DNA of 64,000 nt from Candidatus Binatia bacterium (lineage in GTDB: Bacteria; Desulfobacterota; Binatia; Bin18), in NCBI GenBank assembly GCA_963667495.1, contig OY763426.1, forward strand, positions 4,878,927 to 4,942,926. The letters are read 5' to 3'. This document shows, one piece after another, positions 1,899 to 60,297 of this stretch (position 1 is the stretch's first letter; each line of letters opens with the position of its first letter). A program made the translations under genes and the position numbers. The notes under the pieces are model-generated. The model ran no database searches and was not told the origin of the DNA. It saw only the letters and a program-made list of their open reading frames with translations.

Positions 1899-2153
1899 TT
1901 ACGCCGACTCAAGACCCGCACTAAGCTGTCTAGCCTGCTGGTCGAGCCCCTGAATGGCGGCCTGTATTGCGTTGATTTCGCGCTCCTCGAAATATGCCTC
2001 ACCACACTGCTCACATACCCAGGCGGGGACCGTGTCAAACACCAGGTGATAGCCTTTGCGATCAATATGGAAAGGCGCGTTCGAGTGCTCCATCTGTCCC
2101 TGACAGTGGATGCAGTTCATTGTGACCTCCTTGTACGTAAGTTTTGCTCCCAT
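1899..2153 (-). CDS. YgiT-type zinc-finger protein (MqsA-family antitoxin-like)
   Basis: 84 aa with CIHCQG...CEQCGE zinc ribbon followed by a short helical tail. Overlaps the upstream DUF4258 gene. Confidence 0.6.
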   Translation of the reverse strand: MGAKLTYKEVTMNCIHCQGQMEHSNAPFHIDRKGYHLVFDTVPAWVCEQCGEAYFEEREINAIQAAIQGLDQQARQLSAGLESA

Positions 2154-2443
2154 TCTTCCGCTGTAGGGAGATACGCCGTGATTATCGCAAGCAAATCCTC
2201 TTTAGGCGCGCAAACAACGTGGATATCCCGCTGGTCAACGCCCTGGCCATATAGCAGGCAGCTATGGCCGCGTACATCCTCGGGGTAGTCCTCGATTAAC
2301 TCACCTTGCATAATAATCGCTCGAACCTCACTTGGCGTAATCATCCTATCCGGCCGTGCCATTTGGCGAACTGCATGGGGAAGAAAAAGTATGCGTTGAG
2401 TAGCAGCGCGTCGTATGCGTTCAAGAATGTCTTGTGAAACCAT
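2117..2443 (-). CDS. DUF4258 domain protein (toxin-like)
   Basis: The internal start MVSQDILERIRR... was chosen. The core ILFLPHAVRQMARPDRMITPSEVRAIIMQGELIEDYPEDVRGHSCLLYGQG...IHVVCAPKEDLLAIITAY is typical of DUF4258. It lies between the HicB-like and YgiT genes. Confidence 0.6.
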   Translation of the reverse strand: MVSQDILERIRRAATQRILFLPHAVRQMARPDRMITPSEVRAIIMQGELIEDYPEDVRGHSCLLYGQGVDQRDIHVVCAPKEDLLAIITAYLPTAEEWEQNLRTRRSQ

Positions 2444-2486
2444 TCCTTCAATCTTGTCGCTATAATCGGCAAGAGGCTCGATGGAG

Positions 2487-2657
2487 TTAGGGTATCCCCT
2501 TTTCCGCCCGCATCTCAAGGCAAAGGACAATGGCTTCCTTGATATTATCGAGAGCCTCACCCCTCGTTTTGCCTTGACTCACACACCCCGGAATTGCGGA
2601 GCATTCAACAACCCATATCCCGTCTTCGTCTCGATCAACCGTCACATTAAATTTCAT
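2487..2657 (-). CDS. HicB-like / UPF0150 family antitoxin
   Basis: MKFNVTVDRDEDGIWVVECSAIPGCVSQGKTRGEALDNIKEAIVLCLE matches the HicB N-terminal fold pattern. The start was set at MKFNV. Confidence 0.55.
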   Translation of the reverse strand: MKFNVTVDRDEDGIWVVECSAIPGCVSQGKTRGEALDNIKEAIVLCLEMRAEKGIP

Positions 2658-24836: not shown

Positions 24837-25040
24837 ATGAACACACAGTTGACCATGGTGTATTGGAAGTCGGATACATTCTGGCTGGGCAAACTCCTCG
24901 AACATCCCGAAATCATGACTCAGGGCGAGACGCTGGAAGAATTGGAAGAAAATCTTAAAGATGCTTACTTGCTGATGGCCATGGATGACGTTCCAGAGGA
25001 CTACCGGATGAAAACAATTCGCTGTGAAGTCCGGACATGA
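24837..25040 (+). CDS. hicB: HicB-family antitoxin
   Basis: WLGKLLEHPEIMTQGETLEELEENLKDAYLLM fits the HicB_lk_antitox pattern. Overlaps hicA by ATGA. Confidence 0.6.
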   Translation: MNTQLTMVYWKSDTFWLGKLLEHPEIMTQGETLEELEENLKDAYLLMAMDDVPEDYRMKTIRCEVRT

Positions 25041-25228
25041 AGCGGAATGAGTTTGTCCGCCGTCTTCTGGCCGAGGGATGCGTTCTACACAGACACGGTG
25101 CCAGGCATGACCTCTATCTCAACCCTTCCACAGGAGAGAAACAGCCGGTGCCGAGACATACAGAGATTGACAACCGTTTGGTCAGGCATATTCGGAAAAA
25201 CCTGGGACTGAAGGACAGCATAAACTAA
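25037..25228 (+). CDS. hicA: HicA-family toxin (YcfA-like mRNA interferase)
   Basis: RRLLAEGCVLHRHGARHDLYLNPSTGEKQPVPRH...RHIRKNLGL matches the HicA consensus (G-[SA]-H ... VP.H ... GL). Confidence 0.65.
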   Translation: MKRNEFVRRLLAEGCVLHRHGARHDLYLNPSTGEKQPVPRHTEIDNRLVRHIRKNLGLKDSIN

Positions 25229-31309: not shown

Positions 31310-32506
31310 TTAGACCACTCCATCCTCGCGCAACCGCCCAATCTCCTGCGTCGAATAGCCAAGCAACCCCGTCAAAACCTCGTCCGTATGCTCTCCTAAT
31401 AGAGGCGGCGGGAGGCGGAACTCGACGGGGGTCGCAGAGAGTTTGAGCGGCGAGCCGGCAAGCAGGACTTCTCCTGCGGTCGGATGCGGCATGGCCACGC
31501 GCATGTCGCGGGCAAGTACCTGTTGATCCGCAAAGACTTCATCAATGGACTGAATGGGCCCGCAGGCAATACCCGCAGCACGGATTTTTCGTAGCCAGCC
31601 ATGTACCGTGTCCGTGCTAAACACACTTTGAAGGAGAGGGATGAGGGTCTCCCGGTTTTGCACGCGGGCGGGGTTGGTTGAAAAACGTTCGTCAGCCGCC
31701 AGCTCAGGGCGGGCAATGAGCTGACAGAGTTTCTGCCATTGGCCATCGTTGCCGACGGCCAGACAAAAATAGCCGTCTTGGGCCTGAAAGGACTGATAGG
31801 GCACAATGGATGGATGAGCGTTGCCATATCGCCCGGGCTTTGTACCGGACACCAAATAATTACTGCCAGCATTAGCCAGCCACGCGACCTGGACGTCCAG
31901 CAGAGAGATGTCGATCGCCTGCCCCTGACCCGTTTTCGTGCGAGCCAGCAAGGCGGCCTGAATGGCATTGGCAGCGAACAAACCCGCGGTAATGTCGGTA
32001 ATGGCGACCCCGACTTTCATCGGCTCGCCCTCGGCCTCGCCGGTGATGCTCATCACCCCACCCCGGCCCTGAATAATGAAGTCATATCCGGGCAGGTCTT
32101 TGTCCGGTCCGGTCTGTCCGTAGCCGGTAATGGCACAATAGACCAGCCCAGCATTCTCCTGCTTGAGTTGTTCATACCCCAGTTGCAGCGACGCCATTTC
32201 CCCGGATTTGAAGTTTTCAATAAGCACATCGCTGACTCGGACGAGACGACGGATCAATTCCTTTCCAGCATCCGATTTGAGGTTGACGGTGATACTTTTC
32301 TTATTGCGGTTGGCGCATAGATAATACGCGCTTTCCCCGCCCGCAAACGGCGGACCCCAGGCGCGGGTATCATCACCGCTTCCCGGCCGTTCGACCTTGA
32401 TGACCTCGGCTCCAAGGTCTCCCAGGGTCATGGCGCAGAACGGCCCGGCTAATATGCGCGAGAGATCAAGGACACGAAAGCCAGCCAACGGTTGCGTCAT
32501 GCTCAT
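31310..32506 (-). CDS. CoA-transferase family III (CaiB/BaiF) protein
   Basis: LAGFRVLDLSRILAGPFCAMTLGDLGAEVIKVERPG..GDDTR N-terminal signature. Start set at MSMTQPLAG. Confidence 0.8.
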   Translation of the reverse strand: MSMTQPLAGFRVLDLSRILAGPFCAMTLGDLGAEVIKVERPGSGDDTRAWGPPFAGGESAYYLCANRNKKSITVNLKSDAGKELIRRLVRVSDVLIENFKSGEMASLQLGYEQLKQENAGLVYCAITGYGQTGPDKDLPGYDFIIQGRGGVMSITGEAEGEPMKVGVAITDITAGLFAANAIQAALLARTKTGQGQAIDISLLDVQVAWLANAGSNYLVSGTKPGRYGNAHPSIVPYQSFQAQDGYFCLAVGNDGQWQKLCQLIARPELAADERFSTNPARVQNRETLIPLLQSVFSTDTVHGWLRKIRAAGIACGPIQSIDEVFADQQVLARDMRVAMPHPTAGEVLLAGSPLKLSATPVEFRLPPPLLGEHTDEVLTGLLGYSTQEIGRLREDGVV

Positions 32507-32692
32507 TCCCCCACGCAGGTGGAGTATGCGCAAACAGCAGCCCCGCGCAATCCCCCACACCTCTTAACCGCGTACGCTGCAGAGTTCGTACCGTTGAGAA
32601 GAAACTGGTATAGTCAGCGAGTGGCTGTCTATTCGGGCAATGGAGGGAGTAGACAGTGGGCGGTTCCTGTGGATGAGGTGAGGAGGTTGTGG

Positions 32693-32909: not shown

Positions 32910-35552
32910 TCAGGCAGTACCGGTTTTCTCTATCAACTGCTGGTATACGTCCCGGTCGTTGAGTAGTTTTTCAACAACGAGGAAAAGGCCCCTGCCGTTG
33001 CTTTTTTGTTGCCATAATTCGCCGATGGTCCGTTTCTCTGCGGTATCCGCTCCATCAGCGATATGCGCCCCCTTATATTCGACAACGAGCAGCCGCCCAT
33101 CGTTCAACATCGCCACAAAGTCGGGGTAAAACTTATCCGTGGCGGTCGGTAGCCAGAATGATTCCGTGTGGCGGGCCACATTGCGAACCCAGTATTTCAC
33201 GCCAGGCAGACTGTCGAGAGCCTGAGCGCAACGCACTTCCTCGCCATCGTCTGCGCCGTCAAAGGCCGGAACGTGGTCCGCGCCTAAAAAGTGCTTCCCC
33301 GGCTTCCAACGCCCCCGGTATCGCCGCTGATCCTGATACATCCCAGCCTTGAATGAGAAGGCAGCGTCGAAGGATATTGCGACTTTTGCTTCGGGCGTAA
33401 AAAGACGCTGCTGATAGGCGCTCTTCCGTTCTTGCCGACGAATAGTGTTGATCTTGTCGCGTATCTTTCGCGCCAGGATAAACTTGCACCGCATGAGCGC
33501 GGCAATATGAATACCCCGTCCGATCATCAGGTGGTTGACGAGGTCGGAAAGCCACCTGAGCCGTTCGCTCTGCCTTATATCGTCCTGACGCACCTGCCGG
33601 TCGAGCCACAGGACCAGGGCTTCAGGCGTCCAGCCTTTCACGTCTATATTCAGCGTGCGTTGTTCTTTCTCGCTGGCGAACCGATAGGTGACGTGCCTGC
33701 CGTCAATGTCGATCTCAAAGCTGCGCGCGGTCTCACGGATCGTAAATTCCCCTTCGTCCATTTGCGGCGCATGGGTGAGCAGCGACCATTCGTGGGACTC
33801 CATGAACACGTCAGTATCGGCAAACTCAAGCTCCCCCTGGAGTTCTGACATAAGACGCGGCACATCGAATTGCTCGCCACATTCGGCAGGCGAGAGACGG
33901 TTGTGCATCAGCTTCCGATATTCCCCGAAGGACTCGTCAATCCGCCCGTGTTCCACCTCTGGAACCGCCTCACGGATGACCTTTTCCAAGGCGTCGTCCA
34001 CAGGGCCAACAATCTCGATCTCAACCGTCCCACTGCCGGTAGCGCGTACCGTCAAACCGTCTCGTTGAGTCTGCTTCAAAGCCGATAGCATCTCCGGTGT
34101 CGCTGTGAACGTATGCCGGAAGACGGGCTGGGAATTATCGCGCGGACCGAAAAGATCATCCTTGCCGCCCAACTCTCTCTGCATCGGCTCGATGTTGTCG
34201 TGTGCCTCGTCCTCCTCGAACCCCATCGCCACGAGCTTATCGGTCAATGCCCGCGCGGATGCCCCCGAGGACGGCTCGGACAGATAGGCATATGCCTGGT
34301 TCAAATCAGCAGCTCTGCGCCGCTTAGCGTAGGGCATGCGCAGCACCCGGCCCAATAGCTGTTCCACATCCGTCGCGCTGTGAATACGCGAGACCGAGCA
34401 AAATACATAGGCGAAGGAACAGTCCCAGCCCTCTTTCAGGGCTTCGACTGTGATGACGTATTCAATCGGACAACGCGGGTCGAACAGATCGATACCGTCC
34501 AATTCGCGCTGGTCGCCGGTGGCGATGGCAATCGCGTGGTCGGGAATGTGCTCGACATCCATCAGATGTTTTTTCAGCGCTTCGACAGTGATTTCCTGGT
34601 TCTTCTTCTGAGCCTGGAACAGGACGATAGGCCGGAGGTAGGCGGCGTCCCGTTTGGCAGCTTCAGCCAGAGACGCACGCTTAGCAATCGCACCGTTGAC
34701 TGCATTTTGCCAGGTATCGTGCTCGGACAGCATGATCGGCAGCTTGATCATATCCTCGCGTTTGAGTTCCAGGGCGGAGACGCTGTACAGGATATTCGAC
34801 TTGGGCCGGGGAGTGGCAGTGAACTCGATAATCGCGCACGGATTGACCCGCGTTTGCATCTCACGAGTCAGACCGGTCACCGCGTTGTGCGCCTCGTCCA
34901 CAATCATCAGCGGGAGGTGGATATGCAGCAGGTTAGCAAAGGAGAACTTGACGCCGCCACCCTCCATTTTCTCCAGACCCGGCGTAGCGTCTGGGACAGC
35001 GGAGAAATGCGGCTCCATTTCCTCGTGATGGGCATACACCTTGCGGCCTTCGGTGTTCGTCACCCGCAGCGTCTGAATGGTGCCGACCACAATACAGCAG
35101 TGGTCGCGCAGGTCGTGCGACCGAATGTGGGTGAAGTCGGCAATATCGAACACGCGTACCCGGCCATCAAAGCCTTCATCCAGCGCTTGCCGATACGGGT
35201 GGCCGGCGTTCTTCAAAGCCTCGACGGTTTGCGAGCGAATGGTCTTTGTCGGCACCAGCCACAGGACCAGCGGATAGTCTTTCTCTACCCAGGCGTCGCG
35301 CGCCACAGCAACGGCGTGAGCGCCCAATATCGTTTTGCCGCCACCGGTCGGCAGGCGCAGGCAGACGTACGGTACGTTCGGCAGGTCCGCGAGCGGAGCG
35401 CGATACGTTTCACCGTAGCGTCCGAGCCGGTCCGCATAGTCAGGTTCCTTGGTAATGGTTTCGTAGGCATTCTTCGGCCCGGCCATGCGGGCTTCTTCAA
35501 AGAAGCGGCGCAGAACGGCCAGCGCATCGGCCTGATATTGCTTCAGTTGCAC
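32910..35552 (-). CDS. res: Type III restriction-modification system restriction subunit (Res; SF2 helicase plus C-terminal PD-(D/E)XK)
   Basis: Walker A LPTGGGKT, DEAH-like MIVDEAHN, helicase C-terminal blocks, terminal FYPDFVAMLNDGRLLVVEYKG nuclease motif. GTG start. Confidence 0.8.
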   Translation of the reverse strand: MQLKQYQADALAVLRRFFEEARMAGPKNAYETITKEPDYADRLGRYGETYRAPLADLPNVPYVCLRLPTGGGKTILGAHAVAVARDAWVEKDYPLVLWLVPTKTIRSQTVEALKNAGHPYRQALDEGFDGRVRVFDIADFTHIRSHDLRDHCCIVVGTIQTLRVTNTEGRKVYAHHEEMEPHFSAVPDATPGLEKMEGGGVKFSFANLLHIHLPLMIVDEAHNAVTGLTREMQTRVNPCAIIEFTATPRPKSNILYSVSALELKREDMIKLPIMLSEHDTWQNAVNGAIAKRASLAEAAKRDAAYLRPIVLFQAQKKNQEITVEALKKHLMDVEHIPDHAIAIATGDQRELDGIDLFDPRCPIEYVITVEALKEGWDCSFAYVFCSVSRIHSATDVEQLLGRVLRMPYAKRRRAADLNQAYAYLSEPSSGASARALTDKLVAMGFEEDEAHDNIEPMQRELGGKDDLFGPRDNSQPVFRHTFTATPEMLSALKQTQRDGLTVRATGSGTVEIEIVGPVDDALEKVIREAVPEVEHGRIDESFGEYRKLMHNRLSPAECGEQFDVPRLMSELQGELEFADTDVFMESHEWSLLTHAPQMDEGEFTIRETARSFEIDIDGRHVTYRFASEKEQRTLNIDVKGWTPEALVLWLDRQVRQDDIRQSERLRWLSDLVNHLMIGRGIHIAALMRCKFILARKIRDKINTIRRQERKSAYQQRLFTPEAKVAISFDAAFSFKAGMYQDQRRYRGRWKPGKHFLGADHVPAFDGADDGEEVRCAQALDSLPGVKYWVRNVARHTESFWLPTATDKFYPDFVAMLNDGRLLVVEYKGAHIADGADTAEKRTIGELWQQKSNGRGLFLVVEKLLNDRDVYQQLIEKTGTA

Positions 35553-35578
35553 GACTCAGGCCCTCGCCTTAGGGGACT

Positions 35579-35776
35579 TCATATTTTCTTCGTACTTCCC
35601 GCCTCTCTCAGAATAGCGTTTGCCGTATGGCGGCTTTTCAAGTTGCGCGGAACCAGCAAAATCTTACCAGTTGTCAGGCTTTTCCACTTTTCGTGTGAAC
35701 CTTTTGCACTTTTCCAATACTCAAAATTAAGTTTTGAGATTTCTTTGGTGACCCTCTTGTAGAGACTGACCGCCAA
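35579..35776 (-). CDS. hicA: HicA-family toxin-like protein
   Basis: RVTKEISKLNFEYWKSAKGSHEKWKS...KILLVPRN...ANAILREAG matches the HicA consensus. The probable TTG start overlaps the stop of the upstream DUF1902 gene. Confidence 0.5.
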   Translation of the reverse strand: MAVSLYKRVTKEISKLNFEYWKSAKGSHEKWKSLTTGKILLVPRNLKSRHTANAILREAGSTKKI

Positions 35777-35777
35777 A

Positions 35778-36053
35778 TTATGCCACCGCCTTCTCAGTCT
35801 CCGGGCGCTGCCATACAATGGCCGGTATCAGTTCCTTGAGCGAATGCTCGGCAAGCTCGGAGGCGCTGCGATGATTCACCATGATGAGTTCAGGCGCTAC
35901 GTCCAGCATGATTGTTTCAAATTCATCCAGGGTAGCCGCCTCAATGTGCAAGCCCTCGATATCGCTTTCAGAGTAGAACACTTCTGCCTCAGCGTCCCAC
36001 ACAGCTTTCACTCGAAAGGTCTGCTGCATTCCGATATCCTCCCGTAGCGTCAT
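35778..36053 (-). CDS. DUF1902 / HicB-like antitoxin-type protein
   Basis: QQTFRVKAVWDAEAEVFYSESDIEGLHIEAATLDEFETIMLDVAPELI has the HicB-N/DUF1902 fold pattern. Sits between mod and res. Confidence 0.5.
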   Translation of the reverse strand: MTLREDIGMQQTFRVKAVWDAEAEVFYSESDIEGLHIEAATLDEFETIMLDVAPELIMVNHRSASELAEHSLKELIPAIVWQRPETEKAVA

Positions 36054-36067
36054 GATCCTTGGTCTTA

Positions 36068-36106
36068 TTCCCTCTCCCCTGGAGGGAGAGGGCTAGGGTG
36101 AGGGGG
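36068..36106. repeat. REP-like GC-rich palindromic element (CCCTCTCCCCTGGAGGGAGAGGG plus GGAGAGGGCTAGGGTGAGGGGG)
   Basis: Intergenic hairpin between mod and the DUF1902 gene. The 20-mer GGAGAGGGCTAGGGTGAGGG recurs (reverse-complemented) at about 41324-41343 and closely at about 59315-59333. Confidence 0.5.
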
Positions 36107-36130: not shown

Positions 36131-37684
36131 TCACGTCCGGGCTTTCACCTCATACGGCATCTGCTTGAAGGTGACGCCAATCCTTTCCAAAGTCGCAGAG
36201 GCCAAGCGTGACTGTTCGCCATAGACCGTCAGCGGACCGTTGAAGCGCGCATGCTTGCGCTCAATCTCCTCCCGAATCATAGCAAGTGTGGCCCGCGTCA
36301 GCACATTACCACCATTCGGTCGCCTGTCGCCCAGGATGCCATTGTACAGCAGCGCATAGGCGTGGCTACCGTGCAGACCCAGGAAAGGTGAATCCCCACC
36401 TCCGTTCCACGGATGCCCGGTCTCGCTGAACCAGACATGGGCAGCCAGCACCGGAAAGCGGATGTCCGCTCGAATCTGCCCCGCCTCATCAAACACTGGT
36501 GGCCCGAGCCGGTAGAAACGAAACCCGCCCCCGCCCTGCCAACCCACACTTTTTGAGATGCCGCCCTGTTCGCCGTCAATAACCTTGCGCAAGCGGGGCA
36601 CGCAATGCGTCACTGCGTGCTCGCCCATCTCAATACCGATATAGCGCCGGCCCATCTTGTGGGCTACTGCCGCCGTGGTGCCGGAGCCGAGGAAGGAGTC
36701 GAGCACCAAGTCGCCGGGGTTGGTCGCTGCCTCAAAGATATATTCAATAAGACCTTCAGGCTTAGGAAAGGCGAATTTGTTCTGCAAGCCGAATAGCTCC
36801 ATACTTTGATACGTTCCGTGCTGCGTATAATGTCTCTCGATTATGGTTTGCGGCTTGCGTTTCCTTTCTTCGCCTCCCTCATCTTTGAGGTATTGCTTGT
36901 AAGAAACGACCGTTTTCCCTTTTCTTTTGGAAATCACCAACTCCCCGTCTACAAGCGCCCGATGGGAACGTTCTTTTGACCATTGCCACTGCTTTTCCGG
37001 CCAAATCTCTTCGCCGTTCTCAAGTGTAATCGGGTATCTAAGATTCGGACGATCATCCATGCTCGTAGTTGCCAACGGCTGCAAACGATACGGCCCTCTC
37101 TCCGCGAATTTTTCATCCTGATATTTGTAATACTTTCTCACGACATCGGGATCAGGAGGCAAGAACATCTCGGGGAATTTGCTCATGTCTTTTGTGTAAC
37201 AGAGGACTTCTTCGTGTAGGCCCACAAACCACTTCGCTTTGGCACCGCCACCGTAGCTTTTCTTCCAAATGAATGTGGTCAAGAAGTTTGACCTTCCGAA
37301 CACCTCGTCCATGATGACCTTGAGGTAGTGGGCTTCATTGTCGTCAATCGACACCCAGATTGACCCGTCTTCGGCCAGCAAGTCACGCAGGAGTTCGAGG
37401 CGCGGCCACATCATCGCCAGCCATTGTGTATGTTCGAGATTGTCGTCGTAATGCTCGAAGGCTGAGTGCGTGTTATACGGCGGGTCAATATAGATGCACT
37501 TCACCCGTCCGGCGTAGAACGGCAGCAACGCCTTGAGCGCTTCCAGGTTGTCACCCTGAATCAGCATGTTGCCCGTGTCCGGCTCCCCTGCCGACAGGTC
37601 AGGCGCTTCTTCCAACAGCCGATACGGCACGCGAGAGGCGGTGCGGAGGTCTTCGTCTCGGGTGAGCCAGTGGAGGATGGGCAT
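36131..37684 (-). CDS. mod: Type III R-M system DNA methyltransferase (Mod, N6-adenine)
   Basis: DPPY motif (CIYIDPPYNT). SAM-binding motif I region (the FxGSGTT-type motif) is present (VLDSFLGSGTTAAVAHKMG). The ATG overlaps the stop of the upstream pentapeptide-repeat gene. Confidence 0.85.
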   Translation of the reverse strand: MPILHWLTRDEDLRTASRVPYRLLEEAPDLSAGEPDTGNMLIQGDNLEALKALLPFYAGRVKCIYIDPPYNTHSAFEHYDDNLEHTQWLAMMWPRLELLRDLLAEDGSIWVSIDDNEAHYLKVIMDEVFGRSNFLTTFIWKKSYGGGAKAKWFVGLHEEVLCYTKDMSKFPEMFLPPDPDVVRKYYKYQDEKFAERGPYRLQPLATTSMDDRPNLRYPITLENGEEIWPEKQWQWSKERSHRALVDGELVISKRKGKTVVSYKQYLKDEGGEERKRKPQTIIERHYTQHGTYQSMELFGLQNKFAFPKPEGLIEYIFEAATNPGDLVLDSFLGSGTTAAVAHKMGRRYIGIEMGEHAVTHCVPRLRKVIDGEQGGISKSVGWQGGGGFRFYRLGPPVFDEAGQIRADIRFPVLAAHVWFSETGHPWNGGGDSPFLGLHGSHAYALLYNGILGDRRPNGGNVLTRATLAMIREEIERKHARFNGPLTVYGEQSRLASATLERIGVTFKQMPYEVKART

Positions 37685-39048
37685 CAGTTATCGCTCTCCT
37701 CGGGAACCTCTGACATGGCTTCGTTGTACTCGGCAATCCACTGTTCGGCTTCTTCGGCGGTGTAGGTTCCGGTAATGGCCCTACTATTTCCTGGCAGTTC
37801 ATTACTGGCTGGCTGGTCAATGTTCGGTGTCAGCCTTTCTCGAAACTGTTTTACTGCTCCATGGGGCAAACCTTCGACAAGGGAATCCAAGTGTCCTTGA
37901 CTCAGTCCGCCGGCGAAAATCGCTCCACTCAGATCGCTCTCTTTACCAATCTTCTCATTTATACGGTTTTCAAATGAATAGAAAATTTCCCTTTGGCTGG
38001 TGACCCCTTGTAGCTGGACTTCCCCAAGCGTAGCCGCTTGCAACTCTACTCCGGTAAGATCAGCCCCTTGAAATTGTGCCCCGCTAAGATGAGAGCCTTG
38101 CATCCGTGCATCACCAAGCATAGCTCCTTGGAACTGTGCAAAATGGAGAAGGGACCCTTGAAAATTTGCACCGGCAAGAAAGGCTCCCTGGAAACGTGCT
38201 TCGTTGAGAATAGCTCCTTGCAAATGCACCTCGTGGAGACTCGCCCCTTGGAAGTATGATCCACGGAGGTAAGCCACTTGTAATTGTGTCTCGTAGAGGC
38301 GAGATCTCTGCAACTGAGCCCCATCAAGGTCGGCTCCTGCCATCAGAGCCCATCTAAGATTAGCACTCTGTAGATATGCCTTGATTAGGTTGGCCTTTTC
38401 TAAACGCGCTCTCGGAAGATTAGCTCCATTCAGCCAGCTCTCCTGCAAATTGACATGAAGTCTGTTGAAGACTTCGTGCTCCTGTACGAACAGCAGGGTC
38501 AGCAGGCTTTGAATTTCCTCCGAAGGTTTCGACTTATACTTTTCTCTGTATTTGCTTTCACCCGTTGTCTGGCGGATATGGGCACAGAGAATATCCAGTA
38601 CGGTCTGACGTAGCTCTTTCGTATCTTCCGCCAGGTGGAACAGTTCGTAAGCCCCACCCAAACGTACAGAATCCGACTCATGCCCCAAGTGCTCAATGGC
38701 GTTTTTCAGGCGTTCCTGCCTCTGCCCCTGTTCGGTGTTCTGGTTAGCTTTCGCCTGTTCCTCCGCCGCGTTTTCCATGGCTTTGGCGCGTTTATTAGCA
38801 ATGACAGCCTGAATGGCGAGAATGACGCCACCCATGCTAATCCCCAGAAATTTTAGAGCCTCGTTTTTTTCGGATGCCCCTAAAATCTGAACAACATATT
38901 TCTCAGCACTTTCGCAGGACATGACCAACACAAAAGCGCTCAGCAATACGACAAGCACAATGCCGGAAAGGCCGATCAGAACGGTTGAAACCGGGTTCGT
39001 CTTGAACGCTGGGCCAAGACGACTCAGTAGACTTGAGAGAAGACTCAT
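37684..39048 (-). CDS. Membrane-anchored pentapeptide-repeat protein (paralog 1)
   Basis: Two N-terminal TM helices, a HEAT-like helical region, about 20 consecutive pentapeptide repeats (ANLxxAxLxxAxLxGAxL...), and an acidic C-tail ITGTYTAEEAEQWIAEYNEAMSEVPEESDN. Start at MSLLSSLL chosen by alignment with paralog 2 and the ATGA overlap with the upstream gene. Confidence 0.7.
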   Translation of the reverse strand: MSLLSSLLSRLGPAFKTNPVSTVLIGLSGIVLVVLLSAFVLVMSCESAEKYVVQILGASEKNEALKFLGISMGGVILAIQAVIANKRAKAMENAAEEQAKANQNTEQGQRQERLKNAIEHLGHESDSVRLGGAYELFHLAEDTKELRQTVLDILCAHIRQTTGESKYREKYKSKPSEEIQSLLTLLFVQEHEVFNRLHVNLQESWLNGANLPRARLEKANLIKAYLQSANLRWALMAGADLDGAQLQRSRLYETQLQVAYLRGSYFQGASLHEVHLQGAILNEARFQGAFLAGANFQGSLLHFAQFQGAMLGDARMQGSHLSGAQFQGADLTGVELQAATLGEVQLQGVTSQREIFYSFENRINEKIGKESDLSGAIFAGGLSQGHLDSLVEGLPHGAVKQFRERLTPNIDQPASNELPGNSRAITGTYTAEEAEQWIAEYNEAMSEVPEESDN

Positions 39049-39851
39049 CGTTTCACAACCTGCCTCAATAATTCCAGAGCGGATTCCGACTCCAACCAGT
39101 ACTTGCCGAACAATTTCCAATACGCATAGGCTTGGTCGGCTCCTCCGTGAGAAATATAGCCTTCGATCTGGGATTTCGGCCTGGGATGTCTCTTTTTCAA
39201 CAGCTCCCTGCCGACCAAGGGCAGCTCAGCAACACAATGCTCCAGCGCCGTCCGCGCCTCCTCGTCGCGTCCAAGACGCGCAAGCGCTAACGCCTCCGAA
39301 TAGAGGGTTTCGGGAGCAATGTCGTCCCGATACTTCCGGCAATGCGTAACAATTCTCGCTGGTGCGTTTTTTTCAAACCAACATTTCGGCAGCAGATACC
39401 TCACTCCCTGATTGTCGTTTGGGTTCACAGACAAAAGCCGTCTAAAAATCTCGATGGCCTCATCGTACCTGGCGTTGTGGAGATTCCACACACCGAGGCT
39501 GTGGTAGGCTCTCAGGAAGGGACGATTCTCCAACCACAGCCACTCCAGCCTCGCGGTTTTCCAGCTAAATTTCTGGGGAAGCGCGTGCAGTCCGATACCG
39601 ACGGCGGCTTGACAACAAATGTACGCTTCCGTCTCCCTTCCCTGCTCGCGGTAGATCAGCGAGAGATGATGAATTGCGTCTATGTGACGAGGACATTCCG
39701 CTACGATGGACTGGAGCATTTTTTCCGCGACTTCATCGTGACCCTTCTCCCAAATATCCAAGGCTTGATCGAACCTTTCAAAAATCTCAGGAGTGAAGGT
39801 CGAATCCTCCTCGAAACCCCAGTTGTTTTTTTCCATCTCCACCAGTTTCAT
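39045..39851 (-). CDS. TPR-like helical-repeat protein
   Basis: 268 aa of alpha-helical repeat composition (AYHSLGVWNLHNARYDEAIEIFRRLLSVNPND). GGAGGA SD. Its stop overlaps the start of paralog 1. Confidence 0.55.
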   Translation of the reverse strand: MKLVEMEKNNWGFEEDSTFTPEIFERFDQALDIWEKGHDEVAEKMLQSIVAECPRHIDAIHHLSLIYREQGRETEAYICCQAAVGIGLHALPQKFSWKTARLEWLWLENRPFLRAYHSLGVWNLHNARYDEAIEIFRRLLSVNPNDNQGVRYLLPKCWFEKNAPARIVTHCRKYRDDIAPETLYSEALALARLGRDEEARTALEHCVAELPLVGRELLKKRHPRPKSQIEGYISHGGADQAYAYWKLFGKYWLESESALELLRQVVKR

Positions 39852-39926: not shown

Positions 39927-41288
39927 TCAGTTATCAAGCTCTGTCGGAACCTCTGACATGGCTTTTTTGTATTCGGCAATCCACTGTTCGGCTTCTTCTG
40001 CGGTGTAGGCTCCCGTAATGGCGAGGCTGTTTTCTGGTAGTTCACGAATTGCCGGCTTACCAATGTGAGGCTTCAGCTTCTCTCGCAATTCTTTCGCCTT
40101 CTCATCGGGCAAACATCCGGTAAAGGAATCCAGGTCTTCCTGGCTCAACTCTCCCTCAAAAATAATCCCGTTGAGGTCACTTCCTACGCCAACTCTGTTT
40201 TTCATTAGCTCTTCAAACGGAGGTAAAAGCCCTCCGCTTACGCTGCTGATGACCCCTTGCATCTTTGTCCCGTGTAGAACGGCCCCTTGCATCTTTGCCG
40301 CGCCCAAACTAGCCCCTTGCATCTCTGCCGCGCGCAGATAAGACCCCTGTAGTCGTGCAAGGCGCAGATCGGCCCCTTGCATCTTTACTCCCGAAAGATT
40401 CGCCTCTTGTAGGCGTGCTAGGCTCAGATCAGCCCCTTGCAGGCCCGCCATGACAAGATCAGTCTCCTGTAGCTGTGCTCCACCAAGCCTAGCCCCTTGT
40501 AGACGCGTCCAGGAAAGCTCGGCTCCTTGAAGGTTCGCCTCACGAAGATTAGCCATTTGCAGATGCGTATCGCTAAGGTCAGCCTTTTGTAGAGACGACT
40601 CGCTGAGATCAACCCCTTCTAACCACGCACCGGCCATAAAGGCGTTCTCTAAACGTGCCCCCCTGAGATTGGCCATGTCCAGCCAACTCCCCTGCAAGTT
40701 AATATGCAGCCCTTTGAAGACGTTATGCTCCTGTACGAACAACAAGGTAAGTAGGCTTTGAATTTCTTCCGAAGGTTTTGACTGATACTTTTCTCTGTAT
40801 TTGCTTTCACCCGTCGTCCGTCGGATATGAGAGCATAGGATGTCCAAGACCGTCTTGCGCAACTCTTTGGTATCTTGTGCCAGATGGAACAGTTCGTAAG
40901 CTCCACCAAGGCGCACGGAGGCATTGTCATGTCCCAGGTGCTCGACGGCGTTTTTCAGGCGTTCCTGCCGCTGGCCTTGCTCGGTATTCTGGTTGGCTTT
41001 TACCTGTTCTTCCGTGGCCTTGGCTTGGGCCTTTGCGGCCTCAGCCTGCGCGTTCGCGGTGTCCTCCAGCGCTTTGGCACGTTTGTAGGACATCAAGGCT
41101 TGCAAGGCGAGCAGGACGCCGCCCATGCCGATGCCGAGAAATTTCAGGATTGAGTTTTTTGTGTGTAAGCCTAAGCGTTCCCCTACCCACCCCTCACAGG
41201 TCTCACAGAACACGACGGACGAGAAGAGCGTCACCAACATGACGAGTAGGCCGACAAGGCTGTACTGGAAAATGAGAAAAAGACTCAT
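39927..41288 (-). CDS. Membrane-anchored pentapeptide-repeat protein (paralog 2)
   Basis: Same architecture as 37684..39048. The coiled-coil (NQNTEQGQRQERLKNA.EHLGH), HEAT-like and C-tail regions are near-identical to paralog 1. Confidence 0.7.
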   Translation of the reverse strand: MSLFLIFQYSLVGLLVMLVTLFSSVVFCETCEGWVGERLGLHTKNSILKFLGIGMGGVLLALQALMSYKRAKALEDTANAQAEAAKAQAKATEEQVKANQNTEQGQRQERLKNAVEHLGHDNASVRLGGAYELFHLAQDTKELRKTVLDILCSHIRRTTGESKYREKYQSKPSEEIQSLLTLLFVQEHNVFKGLHINLQGSWLDMANLRGARLENAFMAGAWLEGVDLSESSLQKADLSDTHLQMANLREANLQGAELSWTRLQGARLGGAQLQETDLVMAGLQGADLSLARLQEANLSGVKMQGADLRLARLQGSYLRAAEMQGASLGAAKMQGAVLHGTKMQGVISSVSGGLLPPFEELMKNRVGVGSDLNGIIFEGELSQEDLDSFTGCLPDEKAKELREKLKPHIGKPAIRELPENSLAITGAYTAEEAEQWIAEYKKAMSEVPTELDN

Positions 41289-41337: not shown

Positions 41338-42567
41338 CCTCTCCCCCCAGGGGCTCAGGTCCCGACAGTTTTGGGTAAGATGGGGAGATGGGGGATGAAG
41401 GCGAAGTCGGCGGCTAAGGGGCGGTCAAGGGCGAGCCAGCGCGTGAAGAGGCGCAAGCCGAGTTGGAGGACGCTATGGCGCCAGCGTTTGCCGTACGTCA
41501 CTTCCCGGCGCAGGCGGGGGTGGCGAATGACCTGCGTGCCCACACTACTCATCCAGGCGGAGGCCAAGGCCAAGACGAGCCACAAGCGATTGGCGTGGGC
41601 GGGCGAGCGAATCTGGGAGCGGTGCCACTGCCAGCCGCCCGATTTCAAGTCCCGAAACGCGGCCTCTTCCCACATCCGCAGCCCATACCAGTTCGCCTGC
41701 GCCTGGGACCAATTGGTCAACAACAGCCAGGGCTGGGCATAGCGGCCTTGCCAGCGGCCCACGGCCCAACACGGGCGCCAGCCCCGTTTCTTGAACGCCC
41801 GCACCGCTCCCGCCCAGCGGGCGCCAGGTTTAGGGACCAGCGTCCCAAAGGCCACCTCTCGGCCTGCCACCTGAAGGCGGACCGTCCGCTGCACCCGGAC
41901 CAAGAAGAACCAGCCCAGCGCCTCAATGGCCGCCAGCAAGTCCGGGCTACAGCCAATCCCCCGGTCGGCTTGGACCAAGACCGGGCAGCCCGCCGGGACA
42001 TGCGGCGCGACTTGGTGCAGCAAGGTGCGAATCAAGGCCACTTGGCCCATCGGCCACGCCGTCTGGCGATAACACCACCACGCCAGCGGCAGGGCGCGCC
42101 CACGATAAGCCAGACTGACGACCATGACCTTGAGATGCGCTTGGAGACTGGTCTCATCGACCAGCAGCACGAGCGGGCCGGGGGAGTGGAGCCGGCGCAG
42201 AATCCAGGCCGTCAAGCCCTGCGCCCCGACGCGCCAATCGAGCCGCGGATTGGCCACAAACCGTTGGAGGCGGCGCTCCACCGTGTCCGGCTTGCCCAAG
42301 GTGGGCAGCGCTTCGGCTACCCCGCGTTGCGAACACCGCCGGGCGACCGCTACTCCCCAGCTAAAGGCTGCCCAGACTTTGGCCTGCGACTTGCGCACCT
42401 GGGGAATCTGGCGTGCAACCGTGTCCATCCACTGATATACTGCGCGCTGTTGACTCATGGGGACCTCCCGGGACCGTGGACTTGTGAGATGGCCCACCAT
42501 GCCCCGGCCAACCCGCATGAGTCAACGCTCACAAACTGTCGGGTCTTCAGCCCCCAAGGGGGAGGGA
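41338..42567 (-). mobile_element. IS element (DDE transposase, IS4/IS5-superfamily-like), about 1.2 kb, with imperfect terminal inverted repeats
   Basis: Terminal IRs GGGGCTCAGGTCCCGACAGTTT (about 41350-41371) and CAAACTGTCGGGTCTTCAGCCCCC (about 42532-42555). The transposase ORF ends inside the IR. The flanks look like two halves of a CCCTCTCCCC...GGGGGAGGG hairpin. Confidence 0.6.
41355..42458 (-). CDS. IS-element DDE transposase
   Basis: LVLLVDETSL (D1 region), LVQADRGIG (D2), WEEAAFRDLK (the Y-x2-R-x3-E-x6-K-like block of DDE_Tnp_1). Start at MSQQRAVYQW, or possibly the upstream M at 42518. Confidence 0.7.
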   Translation of the reverse strand: MSQQRAVYQWMDTVARQIPQVRKSQAKVWAAFSWGVAVARRCSQRGVAEALPTLGKPDTVERRLQRFVANPRLDWRVGAQGLTAWILRRLHSPGPLVLLVDETSLQAHLKVMVVSLAYRGRALPLAWWCYRQTAWPMGQVALIRTLLHQVAPHVPAGCPVLVQADRGIGCSPDLLAAIEALGWFFLVRVQRTVRLQVAGREVAFGTLVPKPGARWAGAVRAFKKRGWRPCWAVGRWQGRYAQPWLLLTNWSQAQANWYGLRMWEEAAFRDLKSGGWQWHRSQIRSPAHANRLWLVLALASAWMSSVGTQVIRHPRLRREVTYGKRWRHSVLQLGLRLFTRWLALDRPLAADFAFIPHLPILPKTVGT

Positions 42568-42818: not shown

Positions 42819-43043
42819 TCATCCGGTACGACGAGACCACGCTACTGCCTCATCAATGTCAGTCTCAGATAGCCCGAGTTCGGCCAGCTTGGCCCGCACG
42901 GCACCCTCCCGTTCGAGACGCACAGGTGTCAGCACGATGCAGCCGCTCTCTTCAGTCACCTCGAAATACTCAGTGTCTTTGAAATTGGACAACACCGCTT
43001 TCGGAAGGGTCAGTTGGTTTTTGGACGTGAGCCTGGCGAGCAT
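42819..43043 (-). CDS. AbrB/MazE/SpoVT-family antitoxin-like DNA-binding protein
   Basis: The MLARLTSKNQLTLPKAVL swapped-hairpin N-terminus is typical of AbrB/MazE. Confidence 0.6.
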   Translation of the reverse strand: MLARLTSKNQLTLPKAVLSNFKDTEYFEVTEESGCIVLTPVRLEREGAVRAKLAELGLSETDIDEAVAWSRRTG

Positions 43044-43045
43044 AA

Positions 43046-43300
43046 TTACTTCCCTAGTAAGGCAATGTCGTATTGACTCTGGAGTTCGAGCCAGAAACCG
43101 GGCCGGTTGCCGAAATAACAGCTAAGCCGCACCGCTGTCTCGGCAGTGATTGACCGGCGGCCATTCAAAATATCGGTGATGCGGTCGGAGGGCACCCCAA
43201 GGGCGAGAGCCAATCTATTGGCGCTCAGGTTACGCGCCTCAAGTTCGCGTTTCAGCAGTCTGCCGGGATGTGAAATTACGCACGCCATAGGTACCGCCAT
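43046..43300 (-). CDS. HigA-family (XRE HTH) antitoxin-like protein
   Basis: HPGRLLKRELEARNLSANRLALALGVPSDRITDILNGRRSITAETAVRLSCYFGNRPGFWLELQSQYDI matches the HigA consensus. No HigB-like ORF is evident upstream. Confidence 0.6.
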   Translation of the reverse strand: MAVPMACVISHPGRLLKRELEARNLSANRLALALGVPSDRITDILNGRRSITAETAVRLSCYFGNRPGFWLELQSQYDIALLGK

Positions 43301-43360
43301 ACTGAATAATTTGATCGGTATGGATGGCGAGGACATCCGCCAGGGTGAGATAGTCACGCT

Positions 43361-49555: not shown

Positions 49556-49807
49556 ATGAATGAGGCAAAGCTGCTCGAACGTATTACTATCAATCCGAAA
49601 ATCTTCGGCGGTAAGCCTACTGTCCGAGGACGAAGACTCGCAGTCGAGCATGTTCTTGGTATGCTGGCAGCGGGAGATACAGCCGAGACCATACTTTCAG
49701 GCTATGCTTGGCTTGAGCCGGAAGACATCCAGGCTTGCCTGCTCTATGCGCGGCAGCTTGTTGGTCATGAACGCGTCGGGCCATTCTTTGTTAAGCCCCC
49801 CGCCTGA
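49556..49807 (+). CDS. DUF433 domain protein (antitoxin-like)
   Basis: ITINPKIFGGKPTVRGRRLAVEHVLGMLAAGDTAETILSGYAWLEPEDIQACLLYA matches the DUF433 consensus. Confidence 0.65.
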   Translation: MNEAKLLERITINPKIFGGKPTVRGRRLAVEHVLGMLAAGDTAETILSGYAWLEPEDIQACLLYARQLVGHERVGPFFVKPPA

Positions 49808-50166
49808 GGCTTCTGCTTGATAGCTATGTCTGGGGCGGAGTCCGCCAGGATATAAGAACCGCTGGCCATGATGTCCCGTGGGCGGGCGAGTGGGATGAAG
49901 ACCCCGGCGATGAAGAAATTCTCAGGCGAGCTTTCCGTGACAGTCGTATCCCCGTGACCTTAGATAAGGACTTTGGCGAACTTGTTATCGTCCGCGGCCA
50001 ACGCCATGCAGGCATTCTTCGCCTCGTCAATCTCTCAGCACGTCAACAAGCAGATGTCTGCATTCAAGTCCTCACCACGCATGGTACGGATTTGGAAGCT
50101 GGAGCGATCATTACCGCCGAGCCCGGCAGATTACGCATTCGCCCGGCGTCGGCCACTTCTTCATAG
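49804..50166 (+). CDS. DUF5615 family PIN-like protein (toxin-like partner of DUF433). The start codon is non-canonical or degraded.
   Basis: Frame-continuous LLLDSYVWGGVRQDIRTAGHDVPWAGEWDEDPGDEEILRRAFRDSRIPVTLDKDFGELV... matches DUF5615. There is no in-frame ATG. A CTG overlapping the DUF433 TGA is the only candidate start. Confidence 0.45.
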   Translation: MRLLLDSYVWGGVRQDIRTAGHDVPWAGEWDEDPGDEEILRRAFRDSRIPVTLDKDFGELVIVRGQRHAGILRLVNLSARQQADVCIQVLTTHGTDLEAGAIITAEPGRLRIRPASATSS

Positions 50167-60268: not shown

Positions 60269-60297
60269 CCCCTCCCCTCTCCCAGAGGGAGAGGGGA
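60269..60297. repeat. REP-like palindrome CCCCTCTCCCAGAGGGAGAGGGG
   Basis: Perfect 9 bp arms. Lies between the degP stop and the methyltransferase start. Same CCCTCTCCC/GGGAGAGGG arms as the 36070 element. Confidence 0.45.

Follow-up and report, generated by a model that had tools for sequence, protein, structure and literature searches.

A DUF1902-HicA gene pair between the mod and res genes of a Type III restriction-modification operon in Candidatus Binatia

Layout of the operon and identity of the two small genes

We analysed a Type III restriction-modification (R-M) operon, and the pair of small genes that separates its methylase and nuclease genes, in a 64,000-nucleotide stretch of the Candidatus Binatia bacterium contig OY763426.1 (hereafter the window). 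All of the genes lie on the minus strand, in the order mod, a GC hairpin, a DUF1902-type antitoxin gene, hicA and res. The mod gene (36131..37684) encodes a 517-residue Type III methylase with readable DPPY and FxGxG methylase motifs, which matches Pfam N6_N4_Mtase (E 3.3e-49) and, over its full length, PADLOC MTase_III (E 5.8e-167). The res gene (35552..32910, GTG start) encodes an 880-residue helicase-nuclease that matches Pfam ResIII (E 6e-16) and, again at full length, PADLOC REase_III (E 7.3e-178). Its translation carries a Walker A motif (PTGGGKT), a DEAH motif (VDEAHN) and a C-terminal PD...EYK nuclease motif. The presence on one strand of genes for a Mod methyltransferase and for a Res helicase-nuclease, mod preceding res, identifies this as a Type III R-M system. 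The adjacency of mod and res expected in such systems is lost here, since 578 nt lie between them, close to the 580 bp given in the preliminary description of this DNA. Two small open reading frames (ORFs) make up the whole ORF content of the gap, and the spacers on either side are short, with 77-101 nt from mod to the antitoxin gene and 26 nt (35553..35578) from hicA to res.

Both ORFs are present where the preliminary description placed them, at 35579..35818 and 35778..36053 on the minus strand. Their reported overlap, of 41 nt, is an artefact of choosing the longest ORF. Homologues of the upstream protein are 83 residues long, while those of the downstream protein have 64-65 residues and align with the query end to end. 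Gene calls on homologous contigs, wherever such calls existed, are of 252 and 198 nt and stand 1 nt apart, and a TAA-N-TTG junction with TTG as the toxin start is seen in 10 of 10 aligned loci, free-standing ones included. Thus, the likely gene models are an antitoxin gene of 83 codons at 36029..35778 (ATG at 36029, stop TAA at 35780..35778) and a toxin gene of 65 codons at 35776..35579 (TTG start, stop TGA at 35581..35579), adjacent to each other with a 1-nt spacer (TAA-T-TTG). The motif GGAGGA is found 7 nt upstream of the antitoxin ATG.

The 65-residue protein matches the Pfam HicA_toxin model (PF07927) with an E-value of 6e-5 to 1e-4. The match spans model positions 2-57 of 58, nearly the whole model, at a score of 22.8-23.5 bits that falls under the curated cut-off of 27. 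The Pfam score being weak when taken alone, membership leans on the naming of homologues, the family profile, the fold and the motif as well. We collected 133 homologues, mostly of 64-65 residues, which NCBI and JGI name HicA family toxin; most of the close homologues carry precomputed PF07927 matches. A profile built from 31 relatives matched 1WHZ from T. thermophilus (E 2.4e-4) and the HicA chain 5YRZ_B from S. pneumoniae (E 0.045). The AlphaFold (AF2) model has a predicted local distance difference test (pLDDT) score of 94.6 and an alpha-beta-beta-beta-alpha arrangement, with helices at residues 5-15 and 49-59 and strands at 18-23, 28-33 and 39-43. The top Foldseek matches to this model were the HicA structures 6G26_E/F, 1WHZ, 5YRZ_B and 4P78_C (template modelling (TM) scores of 0.62-0.77, root-mean-square deviation (RMSD) of 1.7-2.8 Å, probability 0.99-1.00). 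Within the motif K-G-S-H-E-K-W, residues K25-G26-S27-H28-E29 are invariant across the 31 aligned family members, window included, and the invariant His28 is the histidine of the G-S-H motif. Published work on HicA assigns the catalytic role to this histidine. By profile, fold and motif, despite the sub-cut-off Pfam score, the 65-residue protein is a member of the HicA family. Searches of NCBIfam and PADLOC with both small proteins gave no matches.

The 83-residue protein passed the Pfam cut-off for DUF1902 (PF08972) with 31.5 bits against a threshold of 22, as the preliminary description had anticipated, and the domain, at residues 13-63, is its sole Pfam domain. The best structural match is TTHA1013 (1WV8), the founding DUF1902 structure, which places the protein in the DUF1902 fold. 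With 83 residues and a single domain, it lacks the C-terminal ribbon-helix-helix (RHH) or helix-turn-helix (HTH) DNA-binding domain of canonical HicB proteins. The C-terminal segment of the AF2 model instead consists of two short helices and a strand at 70-74. DNA-binding domains are missing throughout the family, and their absence here is no adaptation to the R-M site.

The two families are found together well beyond the window. Among 80 metagenomic loci, a DUF1902 relative adjoins the HicA relative in 78, and in 76 it immediately precedes hicA on the same strand. The identical two-gene layout is found on an Enterobacter plasmid, where the Prokaryotic Genome Annotation Pipeline (PGAP) names the products 'DUF1902 domain-containing protein' and 'HicA family toxin', and DUF1902 genes adjacent to hicA have been described by Gerdes (2024, mBio, PMC10865869). 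Given this pairing, the plasmid layout, the published association and the junction fixed in all 10 aligned loci, the DUF1902 and HicA proteins form a two-gene unit. Profile, fold and motif evidence, drawn from sequences and predicted models, supports its assignment as a pair of DUF1902-type antitoxin and HicA-family toxin.

Other arrangements were also observed. In two metagenomic loci (L101, 4195..4431, and L126, 4194..4430, minus strand) the layout departs from the usual antitoxin-first order, with the DUF1902 relative immediately downstream of HicA but encoded on the other strand. In Salmonella phage SEN22 (L097, 844..1698) a HicA relative of 45% identity is preceded by a 217-residue hypothetical protein, with no gene of DUF1902 size; the 217-residue protein may be a different antitoxin partner.

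The mod-res junction and the pair in other genomes

We compared the gap between mod and res across 75 fetched genome loci encoding Res relatives, in 72 of which both gene ends could be placed. The gap measures at most 32 nt, and typically 14 nt, in 51 of these 72 loci, mostly from Alphaproteobacteria, in keeping with the premise that mod and res are normally adjacent or overlapping. An intact DUF1902-HicA pair occupies the gap in six loci (L012, L014, L016, L017, L070 and L081) and remnants of it in three (L013, L015 and L060). Elsewhere the gap holds a GIY-YIG gene only (one locus, L018), a DUF3800 gene (L061 and L071), an HD-domain gene with a partner of 170-177 residues (L033 and L063), or nothing other than repetitive extragenic palindromic (REP)-type repeat arrays (four loci, L032, L038, L045 and L050). 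Three further loci (L062, L073 and L082) have smaller gaps of 76-183 nt. An apparent gap of 2326 nt in L036 was rejected as an artefact of a degenerate second mod-res copy upstream, the true gap being 12 nt.

The intact pair has a narrow distribution within these operons. All six loci that carry it come from Candidatus Binatia metagenome-assembled genomes (MAGs) whose Res proteins are 82-94% identical to that of the window, and two metagenomic contigs (L001 and L002) show the same arrangement at 85-92% nucleotide identity. Two of the loci with remnants, L013 and L015, have a DUF1902 gene truncated at codon 55 and no hicA. In the third, L060, about the first 16 DUF1902 codons are left, the match at protein level extending to residue 31. 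L071, with a Mod at 95% identity, has a DUF3800 gene in its gap. In a neighbour-joining tree of Res, the loci bearing the pair and all of the remnants form one clade, with L071 nested inside it. The simplest history for this single-clade distribution is one ancestral insertion followed by losses and replacements. Res is full length in L013, L015, L060 and L071, at least four members of the clade in which the pair has been lost or replaced, which argues against an enzyme that requires the pair. Taken together, the pair has been inserted into a Type III mod-res operon, as the preliminary description proposed: most of the subfamily does without it. Conservation throughout the subfamily, which would have pointed to an integral subunit, is not what we find, since the pair is confined to one Binatia clade and has free-standing relatives elsewhere.

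Outside restriction operons, the pair was found in Nitrospira between genes for an ABC-ATPase and a nucleotidase, with no R-M context. The Nitrospira and window copies match at 80% nucleotide identity over a segment that begins about 11-14 nt upstream of the antitoxin start codon and ends at the final codons of the toxin gene. Thus, the shared unit is limited to the two coding sequences and the ribosome-binding site. Free-standing pairs also occur in genomes of Gemmatimonadota, Gammaproteobacteria and Rhizobiaceae, and remoter relatives on enterobacterial plasmids and in a P22-like phage. Within 4 kb of the pair, no Mod or Res relative was present in any of the 80 metagenomic loci. An antitoxin beside HicA in 78 of those loci, with R-M genes near none, is the opposite of what characterizes PrrC-type toxins, which have no antitoxin of their own and are obligately linked to R-M systems.

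Both genes appear to be maintained by selection. Neither window ORF is disrupted, and each retains every residue that is invariant in its family. Among the R-M-embedded copies, the ratio of nonsynonymous to synonymous substitution rates (dN/dS) is 0.04-0.21 for DUF1902 and mostly 0.1-0.4 for HicA, the few HicA values near 1 being confined to comparisons with fewer than 10 substitutions, and dS within the clade reaches about 0.6. As judged from these sequence comparisons, the pair is under purifying selection and is functional, not decaying.

The hairpin in front of the pair (36070..36092, minus strand) was correctly described as REP-like, and has a perfect 10-bp GC stem and a 3-nt loop within the spacer between mod and the DUF1902 gene. 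This spacer exists in two forms: four of 10 aligned loci, window included, carry the hairpin, and the other six have a different sequence without it. Among the seven aligned loci that bear an intact cassette, three have the hairpin. A degenerate copy lies at 60273..60297 in the window, and the same element recurs at 88-96% identity in the gaps of L050, L060 and L061. The hairpin is therefore a dispersed REP-like element that the cassette does not consistently carry. Folding of the 121-nt spacer was no more stable than that of shuffled sequences (z 0.61), with only the local 10-bp hairpin standing out. No T-run follows the stem, and the hairpin was for that reason not taken for a terminator. 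Scanning the spacers for sigma-70 promoters and terminators yielded nothing usable.

On the other side of the pair, the hicA-res spacer ends with AAGGCGAGGGCCTGAG. These last 16-19 nt before res are similar to the sequence with which mod closes, stop codon included, in short-gap relatives (K-A-R-A-stop). In local-alignment tests AAGGCGAGGGCCTGAG gave z values of 4-5.6, and for most short-gap loci at most 3-4 of 300 shuffles reached its score. Directly upstream of res, L071 (5958..5993) contains a 36-nt duplicate of its mod 3' end at 89% identity. The 16-nt match in the window is suggestive of a leftover from the ancestral end of mod, in which the ribosome-binding site of res has been retained. 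Likewise, the junctions suggest that cargo insertions which retained the old mod terminus before res kept the ribosome-binding site of res. The duplicated mod 3' end offers a hint of how cargo could come into this position with the translation start of res preserved.

The junctions of Binatia, Nitrospirales and other relatives behave as an insertion hot spot. The GIY-YIG gene (98 residues) recurs in L013, L018, L060 and L061, the DUF3800 proteins of L061 and L071 have 303-311 residues, and the proteins of about 450 residues in L033 and L063 combine HD and HD_assoc_2 domains. PADLOC gave weak matches to this alternative cargo, for dGTPase (E 1.5e-6) and DarG (E 1.7e-4). DUF1902 alleles of 55 residues, cut as in L013 and L015, are about as frequent in metagenomes as the intact 83-residue form (clusters P0174, P0176, P0181, P0186 and P0198), and loss of the toxin leaving an antitoxin stump appears to be widespread in the lineage.

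A probable captured cassette and its relation to the restriction system

We consider it likely that the pair is an intact, selection-maintained type II toxin-antitoxin (TA) cassette of hicBA order, a mobile module captured in the mod-res junction of a Candidatus Binatia ancestor, inherited with the operon and lost or replaced in some genomes, and that it is not a subunit of the R-M enzyme. By analogy with the HicAB literature, HicA would act as a ribosome-independent RNase that cleaves mRNA using the G-S-H histidine, and the DUF1902 protein would bind and mask it. The weak TTG start 1 nt past the antitoxin stop may couple toxin translation to that of the antitoxin and so keep the toxin substoichiometric. 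Repression of its own promoter in the manner of canonical HicB would not be expected, because the antitoxin has no DNA-binding domain. At the R-M site, the pair is most likely cotranscribed with mod and res. Ordinary addiction is the probable outcome: loss or shut-off of the locus would free HicA, which would incidentally stabilize the R-M island. Such stabilization, which the preliminary description had raised, is plausible. Its second suggestion, that toxin activation is coupled to R-M status, found no support: the missing DNA-binding domain is family-wide, and at least four members of the clade have lost or replaced the cassette with res intact.

Two readings would deny the pair a life of its own. 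Integral accessory subunits or regulators of the Mod-Res complex of a Type III subfamily might be expected to keep a constant position and spacing, as the pair does in the six genome loci, the window and the two metagenomic contigs, where Res is 82-94% identical. The proteins nevertheless belong to the HicA and DUF1902 families, stand free in all 80 metagenomic loci and across several phyla, are absent from the 51 short-gap relatives and from sister clades, and give way to other cargo inside their own clade (L071, with its 95% identical Mod). This distribution largely refutes a subunit role, which we regard as extremely improbable. The other reading, a decaying remnant in which the ORFs are relics of a TA insertion without working proteins, finds a parallel in the 55-residue DUF1902 alleles without hicA that are common in relatives (L013 and L015; P0174, P0176 and P0181, with 4-17 members each), and the weak TTG start of HicA would fit it as well. 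Against decay, that TTG is conserved in all 10 loci, free-standing ones included, the window ORFs are full length with every invariant family residue kept, and dN/dS lies at 0.04-0.4; a relic is thus very unlikely, if slightly less so than a subunit. Both readings were rejected on the basis of distribution and dN/dS.

A functional tie to restriction deserves more weight, though we still judge it unlikely. Here the cassette would serve as a back-up defence resembling PrrC: placement in the operon would tie its expression to that of the R-M genes, and when a phage shuts off host transcription or blocks the R-M system, the labile antitoxin would no longer be replenished, and HicA would degrade mRNA and abort the infection. 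The single strand with its short spacers (77-101 nt and 26 nt), the antitoxin without an autoregulatory DNA-binding domain, and the persistence of the cassette under purifying selection in a clade with dS up to about 0.6 all agree with this. Precedents exist in PrrC of the EcoprrI hsd operon (PMC1484252) and in TA pairs of Type I operons (PMC5499597, PMC13515534), and the other cargo of sister loci looks loosely defence-like, as with the HD/dGTPase-like gene (PADLOC E 1.5e-6). But the pair has its own antitoxin, free-standing copies share the same architecture, and none of the pair's features is an adaptation to the R-M context. Four loci (L013, L015, L060 and L071) have lost or replaced the pair and retain a full-length res, and the slot also gathers DNA of an evidently selfish kind, including REP arrays and GIY-YIG genes. 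A broader form of the idea, about equally doubtful, takes the mod-res junction of this lineage for a dedicated cargo slot (pentapeptide-repeat gene, mod, slot, res) into which defence or addiction genes (hicBA, the HD/dGTPase-like pair, DUF3800, GIY-YIG) are swapped and expressed from the R-M operon, with HicBA as a second-line abortive-infection arm for phages that block operon expression or R-M function. Should a functional link between the cargo and the R-M system emerge, the locus would offer a compact model of layered defence. Our preferred reading remains that of an ordinary mobile hicBA-type cassette in an insertion-prone slot; there is no evidence for functional coupling to the restriction system.

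The cassette resembles known type II HicAB and HicBA systems (E. coli HicAB, B. pseudomallei 6G26, Y. pestis HicA3B3 4P78 and S. pneumoniae HicBA 5YRZ) in its toxin of about 60 residues, the double-stranded RNA-binding domain (dsRBD)-like alpha-beta-beta-beta-alpha fold and the G-S-H histidine, and like them it is a two-gene cassette with a protein antitoxin, with the antitoxin-first order of the hicBA variants. DUF1902-hicA pairs of the same order, the DUF1902 gene directly upstream of hicA, are known from Gerdes 2024 (PMC10865869). The Class 7 HicB proteins of that study have DUF1902-like folds in both their N- and C-terminal parts, whereas the window antitoxin has one domain. The paper makes no mention of 'Type III', and a pair inside a mod-res operon was not found in it. 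The TA pair itself is routine, as its family is already named by NCBI and the link to DUF1902 is in the literature.

The closest parallels to the setting come from Type I systems. The PrrC anticodon nuclease of the EcoprrI Type Ic hsd operon (PMC1484252) is also a toxic RNase encoded between the genes of an R-M operon, and is the model for coupling of a toxin to R-M. As described in PMC3458546, PrrC differs in having no antitoxin gene, in being silenced by the R-M enzyme itself and in being always linked to R-M; the window HicA has its own antitoxin and belongs to a pair that is normally unlinked to R-M. PIN-type TA modules in Type I operons (Matelska 2017, PMC5499597) and a TA pair between hsdS and hsdR in Casimicrobium (PMC13515534) are likewise embedded and apparently co-transcribed, and their arrangement, too, is not conserved between close relatives. 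These modules use other toxin families, whereas the window has a HicA toxin in a Type III mod-res junction. Literature searches limited to open-access papers turned up no previous description of a TA pair located between the mod and res genes of a Type III system.

What the locus adds is its context, a clear and datable capture of a TA module inside a Type III mod-res operon, where the published examples are in Type I systems. The full life cycle of such an insertion can be followed in sister genomes: it arrives, is maintained under selection, loses its toxin so that a truncated antitoxin is left, and is replaced by other cargo. Of greater interest as by-products are the way in which the junction acts as a cargo slot and the coupling of a pentapeptide-repeat gene to mod in the same lineages.

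Neighbouring genes and other toxin-antitoxin genes in the window

The pentapeptide-repeat gene (37684..39120, minus strand) encodes 478 residues, and its stop overlaps the start of mod (cTGATGc). By eye, the protein has hydrophobic N-terminal stretches that resemble membrane anchors. In most of the Binatia and Nitrospirales loci with an enlarged gap, a homologue ends within a few nucleotides of the mod start; the loci tied to this arrangement are L012-L017, L032, L033, L038, L045, L050, L060, L061, L070 and L071. No match to it was found among the short-gap, mostly alphaproteobacterial loci. Pentapeptide-repeat proteins are capable of DNA mimicry, and this Type III lineage may thus have a conserved third gene.

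The central part of mod, at about 36610..37170 (codons ~170-320), which is presumed to encode the target-recognition domain, has no nucleotide match in most clade members (L012-L017, L060 and others). The window shares this segment with L070, L071, L018 and L032. Specificity swapping thus appears to be independent of the slot occupant.

The R-M island extends over about 32.9-42.5 kb and is flanked by metabolic genes at either end and, at one of them, by a DDE transposase gene. Upstream of the operon lie genes for the DDE transposase (41355..42518), a TPR protein (39045..39851) and a second pentapeptide-repeat paralogue (39927..41288), all on the minus strand. The island is bordered by a CoA-transferase gene (31310..32560) and by amidohydrolase and luciferase-like genes from 44293 onwards.

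The preliminary description counted the pair as the third HicA-type locus of the window, which is roughly right. One other true HicA pair exists, at 24837..25228 on the plus strand, and the remaining locus is an orphan HicB-like ORF without HicA. The second pair consists of a 67-residue UPF0150-like protein (24837..25040, a weak match) and a 63-residue HicA (25037..25228) that passes the Pfam cut-off at 35.6 bits. Its ORFs overlap by 4 nt, and its toxin is not close kin of the 65-residue HicA. A search of the window for a third HicA toxin, made with phmmer and a small hidden Markov model (HMM), turned up only 25037..25228. The orphan is a 56-residue HicB_lk_antitox ORF (2657..2490, minus strand, 32.2 bits) with no HicA beside it. 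It is followed, within 1899..2657 on the same strand, by a DUF4258 protein and an MqsA/YgiT-type zinc-finger ORF, which are probably another TA pair.

The window as a whole is rich in TA genes. A MazE-like ORF (a weak match) lies beside an HTH_3 (HigA-like) ORF at 42819..43357 on the minus strand, and a pair of DUF433 and DUF5615 (PIN-like) genes is found at 49556..50166 on the plus strand.
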